The notes below the pieces were generated by a model. That model worked only from the letters and a program-made list of their open reading frames with translations. It was not told where the DNA came from and searched no databases. DNA of 64,000 nucleotides from Octopus vulgaris (lineage: Eukaryota), in the NCBI GenBank assembly GCA_951406725.2, contig OX597826.1, positions 71,486,001-71,550,000 on the forward strand, given 5' to 3'. Position 1 is the stretch's first letter, and each line of letters opens with the position of its first letter. This document shows, one piece after another, positions 4,038-53,434 of this stretch. Both the position numbers and the translations under genes were made by a program.

Positions 4038-4419
4038 AGGAGCACTCCGTCGGTTACGACGATGAGGGTCCCAGCTGATACGATCAACGGAACAGCCTTC
4101 TCGTGGAATTAACGTGTTAGTGGCTGAGCACTCCGCAGACACGTGTACCCTTAACGTAGTTCTCGGGGAGATTCAGCGTGACACAGAGTGTGACAAGGCT
4201 GGCCCTTTGAAATACAGGTACAACAGAAACAGGAAGAAAGAGTGAGAGAAAGTTGTGGTGAAAGAGTACAGCAGGGTTCACCATCACCCCCTGCAGGAAC
4301 CTCGTGAAGCTTTAGCTGTTTTCGCTCAATAAACACTGACAATGCCCGGTCTGGGAATCGAAACCGCAATCCTACGACCGCGAGTCCGCTGCCCTAACTA
4401 CTGGGCCATTGCGCCTCCA
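4038..4419 (-). mobile_element. tRNA-derived SINE (family C)
   Basis: Minus-strand head ggaggcgcaatggcccagtagttagggcagcggactcgcggtcg..ggtttcgattccc carries A/B boxes. Homologous to 33668-33970 and 32480-32825. Confidence 0.85.
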
Positions 4420-5516: not shown

Positions 5517-6103
5517 GTGTGTGTGCGTGTGTGTGTGTGTGTTTGTGTGTGATAAGAAGTCTATAAAACTATTATATAATCACATGGCATACCTCCTGAC
5601 CTTAACGTTTTAGATACATACTGTAGATGTGTCGTTAGGTTTATTTTACTGGGATACTCATGAGAGATATAAACCTTTGTACTTTGATGTGTTAGCTTGT
5701 AGACAATGCAGCTTTAAGGCTTCACAAAAGAATGTAAATAAGTGATTAAGTTTTCGATGGTTTTCTTTGCTTCATGTTGGTGCTATTTTAGATATTTCAC
5801 CTGTTTGTATTCGGAAAATAGAGGTTATCAGTTGAGCATGTTATGATGTTGTTACTACGGAAAATTGTTTAACTATATAAGGGCTCTAGTCGAATGAATC
5901 AAATCCGTTACTTACTTTAATCATTTTTCTTAAAAGCTGGGCATATTCCATCGTTCTCTTTTGCTGAACTGCTAAGCTACGTGAACGTAAAAACAACAAT
6001 AACGGATGTCACGCAGGGGAGGGGTACAAATGCACACACACACACACATACATACATACATACATACATACATACATACATACATACATACATACACACA
6101 CGT

Positions 6104-6157
<54 letters not shown>

Positions 6158-6170
6158 GATACATAGATAC

Positions 6171-6244
<74 letters not shown>

Positions 6245-6406
6245 GTGTGTGTGATTGTGTATAGAAGAATATATTAATAAAAAGAATTCCAACCTTGTCT
6301 GATTTTCACGTTTTATTTACAATCTTATAATGATATATTATAAGATAATATATTATAATTGAATAAAATAAAATGAAATAGTAGAATGTTAAATATTCAT
6401 TCTGAT

Positions 6407-6451
6407 TGAACTAGTACTTTCATGCATTGAATTCTGCAATCTTCGGGTTCA
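6407..6451 (-). ncRNA. Hammerhead ribozyme motif in the inverted pLTR
   Basis: Reverse complement of 11995-12039. Confidence 0.8.
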
Positions 6452-6945
6452 TGTAGTAGTGTTGACAGTCATGCTTCACAATTTTTGACTGTAGCAAGAT
6501 GAGTGATTCTGTGCTATAAATACAGCTGGGTAGGCTCCAGAGTGCTAGGTTTTGCAAACTGTATTCTGACCAATCAGTGTGTAGTATCACTCAATTACTT
6601 AAGCTGATTGGTTGGTTGAGCTGATTGGTTTAGGCATCACGCTTTGTTGGACAGGTCAAGAGTCCTGTATCTTGACCCTGGCCGAAGCAGCAATTGTTGG
6701 GTTATTTTTAGAAATGTTGTAAATATCCTTTGTCAGAGATTTTTATATTTTTATATTTCAATTGTCATCATCATCATTGTCAGCACCTTAATTATTGTTG
6801 CTAGTGGTGATGGTGGTGGCAATAGAACTTTTAACCCTAAATAAGATAATTTTCCTGCTATCTTCGTCTTGATCACCTTTAGTATTGTTGTTGTTGTTAG
6901 TGGTCATGGTCGTAGCAGTGGAAGTAATACCTCTAAGTATTATTA

Positions 6946-7631
6946 TTATTGCTTATTTAGCTTGGGTTCGAATTTATCAATAAAATTCTTTTCTCTGATT
7001 TTCCTCTCGATTTCACTTGGGCTGTGTAATTTGTAGAATGGAAATATTATATATATTTTCCGACCACATGTTGCTAGGTGGTTACTCAAAGGTATCTGAC
7101 GGACCTCTGGGTCTCTAATCTGTTGCCGGTGTACACGTGAGCGTTCTAATAGTGCGTTTCCCGTCTGACCTACATATATTTCTTCACAATTTGGGCATTT
7201 GATGCAGTAAATTAAATTTCTGCTTTTGCAGTTCATATTCGCGTTTGTGAATATTTTCCCGGTTTTTGTGTTTATATATTGACCGGTATGTATGAATTGG
7301 CATGTGCCACATCGGCTATCATTGCATTTAGATACCGTGAATGTTTGGTCTTTGTTGCTGAGGTCAAATTTTGCCTTTGTTAGTAATGTTTTCAAGTTTT
7401 TAGGCTGTCTTTTACTAAGCACCATAGCTCGATCCTTGATTATGTCTTTTAATTCATTACTTTGGGCAATGATTGGAAGGTTTGCTTTGGCAATGTTGAA
7501 GATATTCTGGTGACATGGGTTGTGTGTCACTATGAATGGTATGACTTGTTCTTGTTTTCCTCTTCCTTGGGTCGTCCTAAGTTGTTGTATAGGTATTTTT
7601 ATAGCCCGCTGTATGCCATTTTCTATAAGTA
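6946..7631 (-). CDS. Inverted duplicate of the PLE C-terminus (end of RT region, Cys linker, GIY-YIG endonuclease)
   Basis: Translation is identical to the C-terminal part of ORF 9590-11500 (LIENGIQRA..PKLNKQ). In-frame ATG at 7425. Confidence 0.6.
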
Positions 7632-7722
7632 CTCTGGAACCTACCCAGCTGTATTTATAGCACAGAATCACTCATCTTGCTACAGTCAAAAATTGTGAAG
7701 CATGACTGTCAACACTACTACA

Positions 7723-7767
7723 TGAACCCGAAGATTGCAGAATTCAATGCATGAAAGTACTAGTTCA
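7723..7767 (+). ncRNA. Hammerhead ribozyme motif in the 5' pLTR
   Basis: TGAAC-CCGAAGA-T-TGCA gaattcaa TGCA-T-GAA-AGTACT-A-GTTCA. Confidence 0.8.
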
Positions 7768-7972
7768 ATCAGAATGAATATTTAACATTCTACTATTTCA
7801 TTTTATTTTATTCAATTATAATATATTATCTTATAATATATCATTATAAGATTGTAAATAAAACGTGAAAATCAGACAAGGTTGGAATTCTTTTTATTAA
7901 TATATTCTTCTATACACAATCACACACACCCATATATATATATATCTATATTCCTATTGTGTATATGCCAAC

Positions 7973-9266
7973 ATGTCTGGAAAGCAACAAACAAAATTAA
8001 CAGAATCCGAAAGAATTCTAATGGAAATTTCATCGAAATTATCAACACTCATCACGATGATTGACACACAATCCTCTATTTTAAAGGAAATAGAAAAACA
8101 GTCTACAGACGGAAAACTTGGAAATGAACACATAAACTCTGAAATTAAGAATTTAGCTGAAATGATACCAACAATTATAAAATCTACAAGAGAAAGCCTA
8201 CCACAACCTCCTTGGATGTCAGAAATAAACGAAAGAAATCTGGAAAAAGAGGCACACCGAAAAAGAGAAGAGATACAGAAGACATGGAAAAAACTCCTTA
8301 ACATAAGAAAACAAAACTTCTGGAAGGCATATAAATGCGAAAAATATGCTGAAATACATTCGAAATGGATATCTTTAGCGGCACCCATACTTCCTCGGAA
8401 GTACCTAATTAAAGAAATTGCAGGGAGAACCAGAGGAAGAAACTAAACTTCGATGGGACCTTAGTTTGATAAAATTCAGGACCGACATCTCCATTACCCT
8501 GTCTAAACAATCCCGCTACAAAGCCAAATACGAAGCTATCGATGATCAAATCAGAGATGAAATATCCAAACTAACGACCGGCAATATAGCAGAAAAAATG
8601 CAAGAACTATGGATCAGAGATATCTCAAAAGAAGAAAGCAGATCAAGAAAGTTTTGGCAGCGGAAACAATTATTTCTCGACAAATATGCTACAAATTACG
8701 GTAAAGACACCAGAACTCCGAGAAATAGCATTAAAAGTGGACAACCTCACCAACGCAACATACACCAGAACACGTGGCAACATGAACACCCGTTTCACCA
8801 CGAATCGAAGACGAACTACGGTAAGAACTCTTCCCATTTTGTATGCAAACACCCTAATGCACACAACATGAACAAAAAGCACAAACAAAATAGATATTGT
8901 TTTGAACAGACCATTAGCAGTAGAAATAACAGGAGATCATTTTCAAGACCTCAACAGAGATTACCCACAAGAAACTGGACAAAAAACCGATCTAGATCTA
9001 GAAGTAAACCCAGATCATTTCTCCAGGTGGTTAAAAACAATGCTAACAAGAAATTGAAAAGTAGCATACATAATACCAAAAACAAGACAGAAAACATAAC
9101 GAAACCAAGTAAAGTACCACAACCAAAACGCAAAATTCATCAAGCAAACATCAACAGGAATATAAATCATAACCAGAAAAAAATCCATTTTTTTACGTCA
9201 GGACAACAAACACCGGAGAAAGAAAAAATCCAAGAGGAAACATACCCCAAACAACTGAACGTATAG
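7973..9266 (+). CDS. PLE upstream ORF1 (helical/coiled-coil-like N-part, basic Arg/Ser/Lys/Asn-rich C-part), broken by a +1 shift near 8420
   Basis: ORFs 7973-8446 and 8418-9266 overlap and lie directly after the 5' pLTR. The ATG has good context (gccaacATG). RSRSRSKPRS basic tract. Confidence 0.65.
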
Positions 9267-11500
9267 ATCCTAAAATAATTAATTTATCAAAAAGAGATCT
9301 TGACAATGATGAAATCCAACTTCTGTCAAAAGGACTGAAATTCACACCTACACCAACAGCCAACCACCAAGAATTAAAGGAGGATATCCAAAAATTCTGT
9401 CGAAAATTACGACTTGTAGAATTCTTCGCTAACAAAAGTAATGAGATTGATGAATCCCTAGTAAGGAATAAATCAAATTTCACCCCACCAAAAGGAAGAA
9501 ATAACTACCTTGACCAATACATTGATATCCTGTCTAAATTTCCCCTTAGACGCAATACCAATGTTAGGCCAAACATTAGCAAATCAGAGATGTCTGCATG
9601 TAAACGTATACAAAACGATCAAACAATAATAATTAAACAAGCAGATAAAGGTGGTGCAATTGTTATTATGGATACCGAATACTATAAGGATTTGGTTGAA
9701 GACCAACTGAAGGATACAACCTTCTATTGTGAAATACCCGCAAATATAGACCACCACATCATGAAAAAGATCAACAACCTGATTTCAACACACCACAACT
9801 CACTTACGGATAATGAAAAAGACTACATCACCAATTTTGAACCAAAACCCAGCAACTTCTACGGCTTACCAAAAATACACAAATCAAAAAACATTCAACA
9901 GGCAGTAAAAGAACAAGAAAGTGAGTACATAAAATTATTACATCCAAAAGACCTAAAACTTAGACCTATTATAGCTGGTCCAGCATGCCCTACACACCGT
10001 CTAAGCAATTTTATTGACATTGTTTTGAAACCACTATGTACTTACATACCAAGTTTCATCAGGGATGACATCGACTTCCTGTCCCATCTTCCCAAAACAA
10101 CAGAAACAAATTCAGTTTTGCTAAGTTTTGATGTGGTAAGCCTCTACACCAATATTCCACACGATTTAGGAATAAAGGCGATTAAATACTGGTTAGAAAA
10201 ACATAGAGAAGTGATTCCCAGCAGATTCACAGTGCCATTTATATTAGACACAGTCAAACTTATTCTAGAAAATAACACATTCTTCTTCAATGGAAAGAAT
10301 TACATCCAAATTAGAGGCACGGCGATGGGAACGAGGTTTGCTCCCGTTTACGCCAACTCTGTAATGGGATACTTAGAAGAACAACTCTACCAAGAGGTGG
10401 AGGTAAACTATGGCACTGGATTTAGAAAGTATATTGAAAAGGCATGGAAGAGATACCTAGACGACTGTTTCATAATCTGGACAGAATCTCTAAATACTCT
10501 GGAAGAGTTCAATATCCTCCTGAACAACCTACACCCATCTCTCAAATTTACAAAGGAGATGAGTAGTACCAAATTACCATTCCTGGATATAATGGTAATT
10601 AAAAAAGACACCACCATCACCACAGATATATACTATAAACACACAGACACACATCAATACCTAAATTTTAAGTCGTGCCATCCACCACATACAAAACGTA
10701 ACATCCCATACTGCCTAGCCAGAAGAATTTGTACTATTGTAGAAGATGCAAATATCAGGAACAAACGCCTAATAGAACTAAGAGAATTTTTGCTCAAACA
10801 AAAATACCCATCTCTACTTATAGAAAATGGCATACAGCGGGCTATAAAAATACCTATACAACAACTTAGGACGACCCAAGGAAGAGGAAAACAAGAACAA
10901 GTCATACCATTCATAGTGACACACAACCCATGTCACCAGAATATCTTCAACATTGCCAAAGCAAACCTTCCAATCATTGCCCAAAGTAATGAATTAAAAG
11001 ACATAATCAAGGATCGAGCTATGGTGCTTAGTAAAAGACAGCCTAAAAACTTGAAAACATTACTAACAAAGGCAAAATTTGACCTCAGCAACAAAGACCA
11101 AACATTCACGGTATCTAAATGCAATGATAGCCGATGTGGCACATGCCAATTCATACATACCGGTCAATATATAAACACAAAAACCGGGAAAATATTCACA
11201 AACGCGAATATGAACTGCAAAAGCAGAAATTTAATTTACTGCATCAAATGCCCAAATTGTGAAGAAATATATGTAGGTCAGACGGGAAACGCACTATTAG
11301 AACGCTCACGTGTACACCGGCAACAGATTAGAGACCCAGAGGTCCGTCAGATACCTTTGAGTAACCACCTAGCAACATGTGGTCGGAAAATATATATAAT
11401 ATTTCCATTCTACAAATTACACAGCCCAAGTGAAATCGAGAGGAAAATCAGAGAAAAGAATTTTATTGATAAATTCGAACCCAAGCTAAATAAGCAATAA
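9173..11500 (+). CDS. PLE reverse transcriptase plus GIY-YIG endonuclease
   Basis: Frame open from 9173; first ATG at 9590. Motifs: IINLSKR..LLSKGLKFTPTP, KQADKGG, FYGLPKIHK, LRPIIA, SFDVVSLYT, GTAMGT, RYLDD, LPFLD, CNDSRCGTC linker, LIYCIKCPNC..YVGQT, PKLN. Confidence 0.95.
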   Translation, partial: PEKNPFFYVRTTNTGERKNPRGNIPQTTERIDPKIINLSKRDLDNDEIQLLSKGLKFTPTPTANHQELKEDIQKFCRKLRLVEFFANKSNEIDESLVRNKSNFTPPKGRNNYLDQYIDILSKFPLRRNTNVRPNISKSEMSACKRIQNDQTIIIKQADKGGAIVIMDTEYYKDLVEDQLKDTTFYCEIPANIDHHIMKKINNLISTHHNSLTDNEKDYITNFEPKPSNFYGLPKIHKSKNIQQAVKEQESEYIKLLHPKDLKLRPIIAGPACPTHRLSNFIDIVLKPLCTYIPSFIRDDIDFLSHLPKTTETNSVLLSFDVVSLYTNIPHDLGIKAIKYWLEKHREVIPSRFTVPFILDTVKLILENNTFFFNGKNYIQIRGTAMGTRFAPVYANSVMGYLEEQLYQEVEVNYGTGFRKYIEKAWKRYLDDCFIIWTESLNTLEEFNILLNNLHPSLKFTKEMSSTKLPFLDIMVIKKDTTITTDIYYKHTDTHQYLNFKSCHPPHTKRNIPYCLARRICTIVEDANIRNKRLIELREFLLKQKYPSLLIENGIQRAIKIPIQQLRTTQGRGKQEQVIPFIVTHNPCHQNIFNIAKANLPIIAQSNELKDIIKDRAMVLSKRQPKNLKTLLTKAKFDLSNKDQTFTVSKCNDSRCGTCQFIHTGQYINTKTGKIFTNANMNCKSRNLIYCIKCPNCEEIYVGQTGNALLERSRVHRQQIRDPEVRQIPLSNHLATCGRKIYIIFPFYKLHSPSEIERKIREKNFIDKFEPKLNKQ

Positions 11501-11814
11501 TAATAATACTTAGAGGTATTACTTCCACTGCTACGACCATGACCACTAACAACAACAACAATACTAAAGGTGATCAAGACGAAGATAGCAGGAAAATTAT
11601 CTTATTTAGGGTTAAAAGTTCTATTGCCACCACCATCACCACTAGCAACAATAATTAAGGTGCTGACAATGATGATGATGACAATTGAAATATAAAAATA
11701 TAAAAATCTCTGACAAAGGATATTTACAACATTTCTAAAAATAACCCAACAATTGCTGCTTCGGCCAGGGTCAAGATACAGGACTCTTGACCTGTCCAAC
11801 AAAGCGTGATGCCT

Positions 11815-11932
11815 AAACCAATCAGCTCAACCAACCAATCAGCTTAAGTAATTGAGTGATACTACACACTGATTGGTCAGAATACAGTTTGCAAAACCTA
11901 GCACTCTGGAGCCTACCCAGCTGTATTTATAG
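11815..11932 (+). promoter_or_regulatory. Putative pLTR Pol II promoter
   Basis: CCAATCAG at about 11818 and 11835, reverse ATTGG at about 11872, TATTTATA at about 11924, and AATAAA at about 12129. Confidence 0.45.
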
Positions 11933-11994
11933 CACAGAATCACTCATCTTGCTACAGTCAAAAATTGTGAAGCATGACTGTCAACACTACTACA

Positions 11995-12039
11995 TGAACC
12001 CGAAGATTGCAGAATTCAATGCATGAAAGTACTAGTTCA
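11995..12039 (+). ncRNA. Hammerhead ribozyme motif in the 3' pLTR
   Basis: Stem I TGAAC/GTTCA, core CCGAAGA (U4C), stem II TGCA/TGCA, GAA, palindromic AGTACT stem III. Predicted cleavage after A12034. Confidence 0.8.
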
Positions 12040-12168
12040 ATCAGAATGAATATTTAACATTCTACTATTTCATTTTATTTTATTCAATTATAATATATTA
12101 TCTTATAATATATCATTATAAGATTGTAAATAAAACGTGAAAATCAGACAAGGTTGGAATTCTTTTTA

Positions 12169-12218
<50 letters not shown>

Positions 12219-12235
12219 GATACATATATATATAC

Positions 12236-12294
<59 letters not shown>

Positions 12295-31160: not shown

Positions 31161-31172
31161 GATATATATATA

Positions 31173-31683
31173 CTAGCAGTATCGTCCGGCGTTGCTCGGG
31201 TTTGTAAGGGAAATAACTATATAAGCATTTTTAGAGAGTTACTTTCCTTATAGATGCCAATTCGGGCTTTCTTAGCCATTTCTGTTTTGGTGTCTTCAAG
31301 CCATGAAGTCGTTGTTCTAAAAGAACGTTGGTCTCCTTGACAACGCTTTACGACGTTGATTTCCTTACACTCCCTTCCCCACAGCGTCACGAGGGAGGGT
31401 AGAAGGGGGAGAAGCAAACAGGTGCAGGTGTGACCATGGACGCCAACTCCGCCGCCATCGACACACGAAAAATTATGCATTAAAATGGAATAAAAAATTA
31501 TGTTAAATTATTTTTAAAATCGTAGACTCATCGTACGCGCGCTAATACTCAGACGGGCTCGATATGAATCACGACTATAAGATACCCGAATTTGGTTAAA
31601 CTGCACTGCAAAATGTGGGAGTAGTTAGGAATCTAAATCGAAGGGGACAGACACTCACACAACTACAGTTTTATATATATAGA
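31173..31683 (-). mobile_element. Non-autonomous Helitron
   Basis: Minus strand begins TC(tatatatataaaactg) and ends with a CCCG-agcaacgc-CGG hairpin followed by CTAG. Confidence 0.85.
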
Positions 31684-32228: not shown

Positions 32229-32328
32229 NNNNNNNNNNNNNNNNNNNNNNNNNNNNNNNNNNNNNNNNNNNNNNNNNNNNNNNNNNNNNNNNNNNNNNNN
32301 NNNNNNNNNNNNNNNNNNNNNNNNNNNN
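32229..32328. other. Assembly gap (100 N)
   Basis: Run of n. Confidence 1.
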
Positions 32329-41458: not shown

Positions 41459-41950
41459 ACCAAGTAAGTTAGGAGTTGTGGATCCAACCCACTAAGGGAT
41501 AATACTTATCAAATATACTGTTGGTATAATACCCAAATTATTAATACACAAGTGTTTTCAATTGCAATACAATAAACTTACTTATTTTATTAAATGGGTG
41601 AAGGTAAAGAAATATTTTATCATTAATTTGTATTACAAATAAGAAGATAGAGAAACACATTAGTTGGTTTATCAGCTTTTAGGATATTAGAATGTTGACT
41701 TATTTATTTATCAAAACGACAACCATAACATATATACATATAGTATATTATTCAATGTATATAAGATAAGAATACAAGTAGGTATTAAAAAACATTAATA
41801 TAATTTGTTAAAATCATTTAACAATTTATGTTGTTGTATGTTGTTAAGGTTGTCGTTTTGTTAAATAAATAAGTCAACGTTCTAATCTCCTAAAGCTGAT
41901 ATACCGTCTAATGTATTTGTCCATTTTCTTATTTGTAATATATATATATA

Positions 41951-42400
41951 CTAGCAGTATCACCCGGCGTTGATCGGGTTTGTAAGGGAAATAACTATAT
42001 AAGCATTTTTAGAGAGTTACTTCCCTTATAGATGCCAATTCGGGCTTTCTTAGCCATTTCTGTTTTGGTGTCTTCAAGCCATGAAGTCGTTGTTCTAAAA
42101 GAACGCTGGTCTCCTTGACAATGCTTTACGACGTTGATTTCCTTACACTCCCTTCCCCACAGCTTCACGAGGGAGGGAAGAAGGGGGAGAAGCAAACAGG
42201 TGCAGGTGTTTGAGCGTGGACGCCAACTCCGCCGCCATCGACACACGAAAAATTATGCATTAAAATGGAATAAAAAATGATGTTAAATTATTTTTTAAAT
42301 CGTAGACTCATTGTAGACGCGCGCTAATACTCAGACGGGCTCGATATGAATCATGACTATAAGATACCCGAATTTGGTTAAACAGTTTTATATATATAGA
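41951..42400 (-). mobile_element. Non-autonomous Helitron
   Basis: Same family as 31173-31683, with an internal deletion near the 5' end. Confidence 0.85.
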
Positions 42401-42404
42401 TATA

Positions 42405-42917
42405 TCTATATATATAAAACTGTAGTTGTGTGAGTGTCTGTCCTCTTCGATTTAGATTCCTAACTACTCCCACATTTTGCGGTGCAGTTTAACCAAATTC
42501 GGGTATCTTATAGTCGTGATTCATATCGAGCCCGTCTGAGTATTAGCGCGCGTCTACGATGAGTCTACGATTTTAAAAATAATTTAACATCATTTTTTAT
42601 TCCATTTTAATACATAATTTTTCGTGTGTCGATGGCGGCGGAGTTGACGTCCATGGTCACACCTGCACCTGTTTGCTTCTCCCCCTTCTTCCCTCCCTCG
42701 TGAAGCTGTGGGGAAGGGAGTGTAAGGAAATTAACGTCGTAAAGCGTTGTCAAGGAGACCAGCGTTCTTTTAGAACAACGACTTCATGGCTTGAAGACAC
42801 CAAAACAGAAATGGCTAAGAAAGCCCGAATTGGCATCTATAAGGGAAGTAACTCTCTAAAAATGCTTATATAGTTATTTCTCTTACAAACCCGAGCAACG
42901 CCGGGCAATACTGCTAG
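42405..42917 (+). mobile_element. Non-autonomous Helitron
   Basis: 5' TC at 42405. 3' hairpin followed by CTAG at 42914-42917. Confidence 0.87.
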
Positions 42918-42952
42918 TATATATATACATATACATATATATGTATATATAC

Positions 42953-50450: not shown

Positions 50451-51286
50451 CAGATTATCACCCCCACGATTTTCACAAAAAAAAAAAAAAACTCGGATTT
50501 TTTGCGTGGAATCAAATACCCTGACCTCCTAATATGCTGCAAATCCCGTATTTTGGTCCGGAATTCCTCCGGAAAGGGGGGGGGTATTACCCCCCACGGA
50601 ATTTTCACAAGGAAAAAAAAAAATCAGATTTCTAGCGTGGAATCAAGTACCCTGACCTCCTAATATGCTGCAAATCCCATATTTTGGTCCGGAAAGGGGG
50701 GTAACACCCCCCCCCCTGGAATTTTCACAAGAAAAACAAAATCAGATTTTTTGCGTGGAATCAAGTACCCTGACCTCCTAATATGCTGCAAATCCCATAT
50801 TTTGGTCCGGAATTGCTCCGGAAAGGGGGGGTAACCCCCTCCCCCGGAATTTTCACAAGGAAAAAAAAATAACATATCAATAATTTAGAAAAGAAACATT
50901 TCTAGAAAATAGTAAATTGAAGTGTCAACAAATTATTGGGCAAAATTGAAGTGTGAACAAATCATTGGGCAAAAGAAGATTTGGCATACTGTCATGCTTT
51001 TTAGCTGTCAGAAGTGAAAGTCGTCAACTTCGTGTATTTGCGTCAGGTTCGCTGTTAGGCTTATAAAACAATAGAAGTTCAGTTTAAAGTTTATAAATAA
51101 ATACATTTCATTCCATGTTCTGTTTAAACTTTATAAATAAATATATTCTTGCAGTGTGTGTATATGTGGCTATATGTCTGACTAATGTGTGTATAAGTAG
51201 TTATATGCTTATATTATCCATTATAGTAATATTTGTCTGTTGAAACCTGTTTTAAGGCGGTCAATAGTTTAATTAGAGATGTATAT

Positions 51287-51317
<31 letters not shown>

Positions 51318-51338
51318 CAGGTGTATATATACATGTGT

Positions 51339-51398
<60 letters not shown>

Positions 51399-52512
51399 TA
51401 TATACACATGTCTATATATATACACATGTATATATAAATATATATATACACATGTATATATATATACATGTATAGACACATCTTTAATTAAACTATTGAC
51501 CGCCTTAAAACGGGTTTCAACAGACAAATATTACTATAATGGATAATGTAATGGATAAAATTCAGACAAACTTACCTCTTGCTGTCAAAAAAAGTGGATT
51601 AATTCTCAGCAAAACATACTGTTATGCTAGACCAGTGGTTTTCAACCAGGGTTCCGCAAGAAGTTGCAAAACTGCTAAAATCGGCAGTAATTTTTAATTC
51701 TCCTGTGCAGATATGTGTGCATAAGACTATTAAATTATTGTACAGGGGTTCCTCGAGCCAGTGGAATGTTTGAATTACGCTCTGTGATAGTGTCAGGTTC
51801 TAATTTTTACTTCTGATCTCTCTCTGTGCCGCCCTCTCTATCTCAAACTAATTTTTGTGTGGTGGGGAGACAGATGAACAATGTCTCATGAACCATTTCT
51901 TAAACATACACGATATAGTCTATAAATTCGGTATGTTTTTGAAAGATAATATATTTTATCATCAGAATATATATACTTTCTCACACTACAATTAAGGTAT
52001 ATTTATTTTAAATCGTTCATCTTTTCCCGCCCACAACAAAACTTGGCGCGAAAACTTTTCTAAATATCAGCAGAATGAACAACTGAGATAGAGAGGGGGG
52101 GCAAAGAGAGATCAGAAGCAAAAATTAGAAACTGAAACCACACAGCGTAATTCAAACATTCCACTGGCTCGAGGAACCCCTGTACAATAATTTAATAGTC
52201 TTATGCACATATATCTGCACAGGAGAATTAAAAATTACTGCCGATTTTAGCAGTTTTGCAACTTCTTGCGGAACCCTGGTTGAAAACCACTGGTCTAGCA
52301 TAACAGTATGTTTTGCTGAGAATTAATCCACTTTTTTTGACAGCAAGAGGTAAGTTTGTCTGAATTTTATCCATTACATTATCCATTATAGTAATATTTG
52401 TCTGTTGAAACCCGTTTTAAGGCGGTCAATAGTTTAATTAAAGATGTGTCTATACATGTATATATATATTTATATATACATGTGTATATATATAGACATG
52501 TGTATATATATA

Positions 52513-52553
<41 letters not shown>

Positions 52554-53434
52554 ACACATGTATATATACACCTGTATATATATATATATATATATACATG
52601 TATAGATACATCTTTAATTAAACTATTGACCGCCTTAAAACAGGTTTCAACAGACAAATATTACTATAATGGATAATATAAGCATATAACTACTTATACA
52701 CACATACAATAAATACAGACACACACATTAGTCAGACATATAGCCACATATACACACACTGCAAGAATATATTTATTTATAAAGTTTAAACAGAACATGG
52801 AATGAAATGTATTTATTTATAAACTTTAAACTGAACTTCAATTGTTTTATAAGCCTAACTGCGAACCTGACGCAAATACACGAAGTTGACGACTTTCACT
52901 TCTGACAGCTAAAAGCATGACAGTATGCCAAATCTTCTTTTGCCCAATAATTTGTTGACACTTCAATTTACTATTTTCTAGAAATGTTTCTTTTCTAAAT
53001 TATTGATATGTTATTTTTTTTTCCTTGTGAAAATTCCGGGGGAGGGGGTTACCCCCCTTTCCGGAGCAATTCCGGACCAAAATATGGGATTTGCAGCATA
53101 TTAGGTCAGGGTACTTGATTCCACGCAAAAAATCTGATTTTTTTTTCTTGTGAAAATTCCGGGGGGGGGGGGTGTTACCCCCCTTTCCGGACCAAAATAT
53201 GGGATTTGCAGCATATTAGGAGGTCAGGGTACTTGATTCCACGCTAGAAATCTGATTTTTTTTTTTTCCCTTGTGAAAATTCCGGGGGGGGGGGTAATAC
53301 CCCCCTTTCCGGAGGAATTCCGGACCAAAATATGGGTTTTGCAGCATATTAGGAGGTCAGGGTATTTGATTCCACGCAAAAAATCCGAGTTTTTTTTTTT
53401 TTTTCTTAGTGAAAATCGTGGGGGTGATAATCTG
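50451..53434. mobile_element. Foldback-type DNA element of about 3 kb with arms of about 1.4 kb
   Basis: TA-cagattatcacccccacg .. cgtgggggtgataatctg-TA. Each arm has three subrepeats of about 120 bp and a nested palindrome (51214-51548 and 52378-52678). Confidence 0.88.

Follow-up and report, generated by a model that had tools for sequence, protein, structure and literature searches.

An inverted Penelope-like insertion in Octopus vulgaris with one short and one tailed 3′ end in (TA)n: a case for two target-primed cDNAs

How does a retroelement come to present a 3′ end on both of its sides, each merging into the same kind of microsatellite? The question is raised by an insertion in a stretch of 64,000 nucleotides of the Octopus vulgaris genome (assembly GCA_951406725.2, contig OX597826.1, positions 71,486,001 to 71,550,000; hereafter the window, whose numbering is used throughout). 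The insertion is formed by a young, high-copy Penelope-like element (PLE) with a reverse transcriptase (RT) plus a GIY-YIG endonuclease (EN) at the C-terminus. A first-pass annotation had proposed two events of target-primed reverse transcription on opposite strands, each at an AT tract of the element. End sites, end pairing and arm geometry across the family favour this proposal, and we consider it likely that a recent inverted insertion arose from two target-primed cDNAs, started on both nicked strands of a (TA)n repeat and joined head-to-head.

Short and tailed 3′ ends at the locus and across the family

At the locus, 6269-7631 and 10815-12177 are reverse complements of each other without a single difference (1363 bp, 0 mismatches, 0 indels, position i facing 18446-i), and a single A at 7631 is common to both arms at the head-to-head junction. 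In the forward part, a complete unit of 4272 bp (4271 bp in other copies) comes after the final 275 bp of another. The right end terminates at ..TTAATATAT (site A, 12172-12177) and passes into (TA)n. The left end carries an extra AC-rich tail of 26 nt (6243-6268, the reverse of 7906-7931) and leaves through site B, an (AT)7 tract corresponding to 7932-7945, likewise into (TA)n; both outer ends are element 3′ ends. The earlier description of indel-free mirror arms, a junction with one shared base, a right end in the element's own AT sequence, a left end some 30 nt longer and two exits into genomic (TA)n is borne out by sequence comparison in each respect.

Exact patterns were counted over the 2.8-Gb genome, the patterns having no one common denominator. 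A 36-nt 3′ anchor has 964 exact genomic copies, hence the observation is not a matter of chance. There are 305 short ends at site A, 521 tailed ends that use either site B or a third site, C (CTATAT), and 48 exact internal junctions, whereas three other AT tracts of the unit, one of them longer than site A, account for 1, 1 and 0 ends. Of the 964 anchors, the first 100, on contig 1, were also read with their surrounding DNA (80 stretches), as were 20 further stretches. The first 100 anchors comprise 52 plain and 22 inverted insertions. All 96 terminal ends read on contig 1 exit at the AT tract at A, B or C, and none lies inside the AC-rich tail; 8 of the 96 were classed by eye, among them one that hits an assembly gap after one base and one with a degenerate AT flank. 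The AT phase is continued into the flank at 40 of 43 site-A ends. Two rare off-site ends lie at AT tracts as well, to which that search was confined. AT pairing is therefore available wherever priming occurs, yet priming takes place only beside the tail. The clustering of family 3′ junctions at AT tracts, on which the earlier proposal depended, is thus present, with site C added. Among tailed ends on contig 1 (loci L031-L110), site C is rarer in inverted than in plain insertions (3 of 22 vs 15 of 32; Fisher p 0.018).

The two kinds of end are strictly paired. All 39 distinct inverted insertions (35 read, 4 known by coordinates only) combine one short with one tailed end, the chance of which is about 2e-12 even under the assumption most favourable to it, 50:50. 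Coordinates give the same picture: when the first 100 listed A ends (71 used, range-matched) are set against the first 100 B/C ends, 27 of 27 outward-facing end pairs within 20 kb are mixed, with 23 A+B, 4 A+C, 0 A+A and 0 tailed+tailed. This fixed A-plus-B asymmetry points to one coordinated complex of two RTs.

The (TA)n target and the choice of priming site

Of the 52 plain insertions, 47 have a run of (TA)4 or more no further than 40 nt from their truncated 5′ end, vs 7% of background windows. Since the repeat stands beside this end too, (TA)n is likely a pre-existing target and not just an RT-added tail. Some 5′ junctions contain short templated duplications mixed with TA, so slippage may lengthen the repeat; a target-site duplication cannot be read within (TA)n. 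At one 5′ junction (L115:5113-5204), two (TA)n runs enclose a 70-bp fragment of the element, an apparent case of template jumping between RNA and target.

It had further been suggested that microhomology explains the targeting. The AT-matching ends agree with this, and microhomology likely sets the register of priming. However, equal or longer AT tracts elsewhere in the unit are almost never used, so microhomology does not explain the targeting by itself, and the suggestion is supported only in part; a position adjacent to the tail is needed as well, and probably also the nuclease.

We propose the following course of events. The nuclease would cut both strands within (TA)n. The possible priming positions would be limited by the stretch of bound RNA close to the tail, while AT pairing would set the register, such that one nicked strand starts from the short AT tract that precedes the tail (site A) and the other from an AT tract that follows it (site B or C). 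Each cDNA would then terminate independently of the other, in many cases at the RNA 5′ end, after which the two 3′ ends would anneal over 0-6 nt and be filled in. A coordinated two-RT complex may carry out these steps, usually on two templates of one source, which in some cases at least are separate RNAs.

The mechanism is deduced from genome sequence, and several points weigh against this reading. No (TA)n is found at the 5′ end of 5 of the 52 plain insertions. No empty-site joint occurs among the matches listed for four contig sets and the plain insertion L078; the earlier view of a very recent insertion agrees with the 0 differences over 1363 bp, but no empty site appeared. Likewise, no match bridging 7631 is among those listed for 7000-8300 in two contig and two raw-read sets, the raw-read runs containing 0 and 12 reads. 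The exact start cannot be placed within the AT letters common to element and target, and the clade membership given below is based on a motif. Finally, for the one PLE that has been purified, the initiation site is reported to lack homology with the DNA that is cut (PMC11167929); AT pairing may therefore be a side effect of a start at a fixed position.

The last point leads to the alternative that fares best, namely that both priming events occur at positions fixed by protein or RNA structure, without any pairing to the target; the AT tracts would then be incidental and the nuclease alone would do the targeting. The non-homologous starts of the purified element, PAc (Poseidon from Anolis), lie in an AC-rich stem-loop (PMC11167929), and the present tail is also AC-rich and has a 10-bp inverted repeat. 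The virtual disuse of the other AT tracts of the unit (1, 1, 0) would follow from such fixed positions, and a Zn-finger linker has been proposed as a reader of (TA)n (PMC8557442). On the other hand, all three sites in use are AT tracts in phase with the flank, and 0 of the 96 terminal ends on contig 1 fall within the AC-rich tail; the two rare off-site ends at AT tracts add a weak argument, as they were sought at AT tracts. We regard this alternative as unlikely, and pairing with the nicked (TA)n strands as the better account of the register.

Origin of the two arms

Inverted arms could also arise from a single cDNA that primes itself by folding back, with an endonuclease trimming one end to leave a one-sided tail. 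For PLEs, self-priming has been proposed to start from palindromes at the junction (PMC3846280), and the tail to be resolved by the nuclease (PMC8557442). The lengths of the arms argue against simple fold-back and favour two cDNAs, because a fold-back arm has to lie nested within the first cDNA and cannot acquire a tail that this cDNA lacks. Of 23 inverted insertions (the 22 above and the present locus), 13 have the short-ended arm as the longer one and 6 the tailed arm, and 4 have arms of equal length. The present locus belongs to the class with the shorter tailed arm, which carries a tail absent from the long short-ended arm; for this class, fold-back is largely refuted. The 6 loci with a longer tailed arm speak against it as well.

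The comparison of variants bears on the same question. The arms hold 31 shared variants and 17 differences over 18,347 bp, vs about 56 expected between loci, so the two arms of one insertion appear mostly to derive from one source. This predominance of shared over unique variants would suit fold-back, as would the two tested shared variants that occur in the two arms only and nowhere else in the genome. The other two of the four traced, however, are present at other loci and hence source-derived, and inherited variants are discordant between the arms in 4 of the 35 inverted insertions read (L100, L116, L121, L123), the rest being concordant or uninformative; the discordant variants recur in other copies or segments. 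Taken with the arm lengths, fold-back appears rather improbable.

Two cDNAs may still have been copied from one RNA. Adjacent tandem units, however, differ as little (13 in 18,436) as the arms do (17 in 18,347), so arm identity cannot single out one RNA, and gene conversion could contribute; this, too, limits what the arms say for our reading. At L116 both arms end at the putative transcription start described below and yet carry discordant variants, so two RNAs (or later conversion) are needed. Since this locus still pairs A with B, exclusion on one RNA cannot be the whole cause of the pairing rule, and an asymmetric two-RT complex is the simpler inference. A strict one-RNA model, whose appeal is that a given site on one RNA cannot serve for priming a second time, was set aside as only possible in view of an arm identity no tighter than tandem-unit identity and four discordant loci. 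Hence dual priming, i.e. priming on two RNAs, seems to occur at least sometimes. The label twin priming used in the first-pass annotation, taken in the sense established for L1 (one RNA, non-overlapping halves), does not suit overlapping arms; dual priming suits some of the loci at least. As a separate observation, neighbouring tandem units of one insertion share variants absent from other sampled loci at L037, L042 and L106, hinting at repeated copying of one template.

The inner ends of the arms are informative as well. An exact junction overlap of at least 2 nt is found in 11 of 19 inverted insertions vs 16% expected (p 4e-5), after four were dropped (two with inserted bases, two with nearby mismatches); the overlap at the present locus is 1 nt only. 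Moreover, 17 of 98 arm 5′ ends lie at unit positions 4047-4058, 30 nt past a TATA-like box (window 11924 and 11954), a hotspot that we infer to be a transcription start. Six insertions join two arms exactly at this putative start, with the centre base of the near-palindrome as in ACAGT in 3 and as in ACTGT in 3; this 3:3 split is as expected if two cDNA ends anneal over a mismatch (heteroduplex). Ribozyme cleavage was considered as a source of the hotspot, but no hammerhead was found and no NUH triplet precedes unit position 4048, and a transcription start is preferred. Propagation of whole inverted units was rejected, as junctions vary by locus and the joins at the putative start differ in centre base, tails and variants. 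Recurrent non-coding inverted insertions of about 460 bp, both arms ending at the putative start (L068, L072, L116, L125, L127, L128), could be mistaken for miniature inverted-repeat transposable elements.

An assembly artefact at the present locus (a fold-back read or repeat collapse) is highly improbable: the 100% identity of the arms and the absence of the 7631 junction from the matches listed would suit it, but each arm has an end and a flank of its own, 38 further loci show this asymmetry too and do so with junctions that differ, and variants private to a locus speak against a family average imposed by polishing.

More tentatively, and with slightly more doubt than confidence, we hypothesize that an asymmetric two-RT complex, with one subunit always before the tail and the other after it, and both pairing with nicked (TA)n strands, is general in microsatellite-targeting PLEs. 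If so, this complex would explain the inverted pseudo-long terminal repeat (pLTR), the one-sided tail and the microsatellite junctions in a single step, and would represent a natural, frequent instance of dual priming.

The element, its relatives and the rest of the window

Inverted arms, a one-sided tail of 30-40 nt and a (TA)n bias are published PLE traits (PMC8557442, PMC3846280, PMC11167929), and inverted or tandem pLTR insertions of EN-containing (EN+) PLEs with a one-sided tail have the same architecture as here (PMC8557442, PMC3846280, PMC2377424). The architecture itself is thus already known; what is added is that the pairing is strict and that the start sites match the target, together with the case against simple fold-back. 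In comparison with the published EN+ PLEs, the one-sidedness is here counted as strict (39 of 39), both borders of the tail are AT tracts that match the target, and the arm geometry speaks against the explanations given in that work, self-priming and trimming by a nuclease. In vitro, both strands are cut and extended by PAc; its cuts are AT-rich, and it is predicted to be a dimer (Frangieh et al., 2024; PMC11167929). Like the present element it has two adjacent internal RT starts that bound a tail near the RNA 5′ end, and an AC-rich region. Its starts are reported as non-homologous to the target, whereas those described here match it; the main text of that account draws no connection between this pair of starts and the two ends that inverted insertions have, and PAc has a hammerhead, which was not found here.

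Twin priming was defined for L1 by Meyer et al. (PMC2837659), who also propose two-RNA dual priming without validation. As here, nicks in both strands prime cDNA and the products join head-to-head by microhomology. L1 twin priming, however, uses the poly(A) end and a variable upstream site on one RNA and leaves a deletion between the halves, while both starts of the present element are fixed 3′ sites and the arms overlap. In the EN-minus Athena and Coprina elements, an element-encoded repeat complementary to the target likewise assists attachment; these lack the nuclease and use telomere overhangs (PMC8557442), in contrast to the present GIY-YIG element in internal (TA)n. No further account of twin priming or inverted insertion in PLEs was found in searchable main texts; passages from PMC12602865, PMC9977147, PMC13282606 and bioRxiv 10.64898/2026.07.22.740005 contributed nothing regarding the insertion mechanism. 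The origin of tandem and inverted structures and the microsatellite bias are listed among the open questions of PLE transposition (PMC8557442), which a young and numerous family turns into counts. With the strict short-plus-tailed rule, three start sites and a defined RNA 5′ end, substrates for the in vitro assay already in use can be specified exactly, and the target-matching starts stand in contrast to the non-homologous ones reported for PAc.

As to the identity of the element, Pfam matches are RVT_1 at residues 290-442 (E 2e-6, below the curated cut-off) and GIY-YIG at residues 687-773 (E 3e-5, above it). A CCHH motif as defined for EN+ PLEs (PMC8557442) is present, with two Cys between GIY and YIG (NLIY-CIKCPNC-EEIYVG, later H..H). 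The EN is preceded by the linker C-NDSR-C-GT-C (CX4CxxC), in agreement with the CX2-5CxxC linker of the Neptune and Nematis clades (PMC8557442); this motif suggests a Neptune/Nematis-type element, the two not being told apart. Naiad/Chlamys membership was rejected, as it calls for an N-terminal EN and the EN here is C-terminal. Tandem units (4271 bp) forming pLTRs, together with an inverted copy and a tail, are as expected of an EN+ PLE. There are 630 relatives at E<=1e-50, the best named being bivalve sequences. The family is young, most copies being 99.5-100% identical to one unit. A search for a hammerhead ribozyme gave 0 Rfam matches and 0 candidates from core-motif scans of the pLTR, and Rfam miRNA matches were discarded as TA-repeat noise with scores below gathering. 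A stable stem-loop around sites B and C was likewise dropped, the fold of the whole region (z 0.37) being no better than that of shuffles.

Table 1. Features of the insertion and its flanks, in window coordinates.
Feature	Position	Strand	Remarks
Left compound (CA/TACA/TA)n microsatellite, likely pre-existing target	6034..6242		carries CATAGATACA, orientation same as right flank
Inverted-arm tail, 26 nt, AC-rich, leaving through site B into (TA)n	6243..6268	-	reverse complement of 7906-7931
Inverted 5′-truncated tailed arm	6269..7631	-	exact copy of 10815-12177
Head-to-head junction, AGTACT palindrome	7628..7633		one A (7631) common to both arms
Internal pLTR (3′ end of upstream tandem unit)	7631..7905	+	one private difference (7639) vs both terminal copies
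TATA-like box (7652) and putative transcription start (7682)	7652..7691	+	repeated at 11924 and 11954; putative promoter
Internal copy of priming region	7900..7951	+	site A 7900-7905, tail 7906-7931, site B (AT)7 7932-7945, site C CTATAT 7946-7951
10-bp inverted repeat around sites B and C	7911..7965	+	7911-7920 / 7956-7965; possible RNA stem-loop
Upstream open reading frame (ORF)	7973..9266	+	430 aa from first Met in intact copy
RT and C-terminal GIY-YIG EN frame, 775 aa	9173..11500	+	CX4CxxC linker, CCHH motif
Terminal pLTR, short end at site A	11903..12177	+	
Right (TA)n compound microsatellite	12178..12294		

At the present locus the upstream ORF is broken by a 1-bp insertion near 8424, and the RT-EN frame is open. 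In intact copies the 430-aa upstream ORF overlaps the RT frame in -1. A candidate phase-compatible GT-AG intron (8821-9266) would fuse the two; the upstream ORF remains open across it and ends in the TAG of the acceptor. The alternative is -1 slippage near 9190, where there is a T7 run.

Elsewhere in the window, a 100-base assembly gap (32229-32328) is distant from the PLE insertion. Inverted or dispersed copies of another repeat lie at 41938-42930 and 31163-31542, with an ACTAG end adjoining (TA)n. An unrelated fold-back element at 51200-52700 has inverted arms of about 395 bp and compound TA repeats on both sides, and the flanks outside these repeats are also inverted copies of the arm ends.

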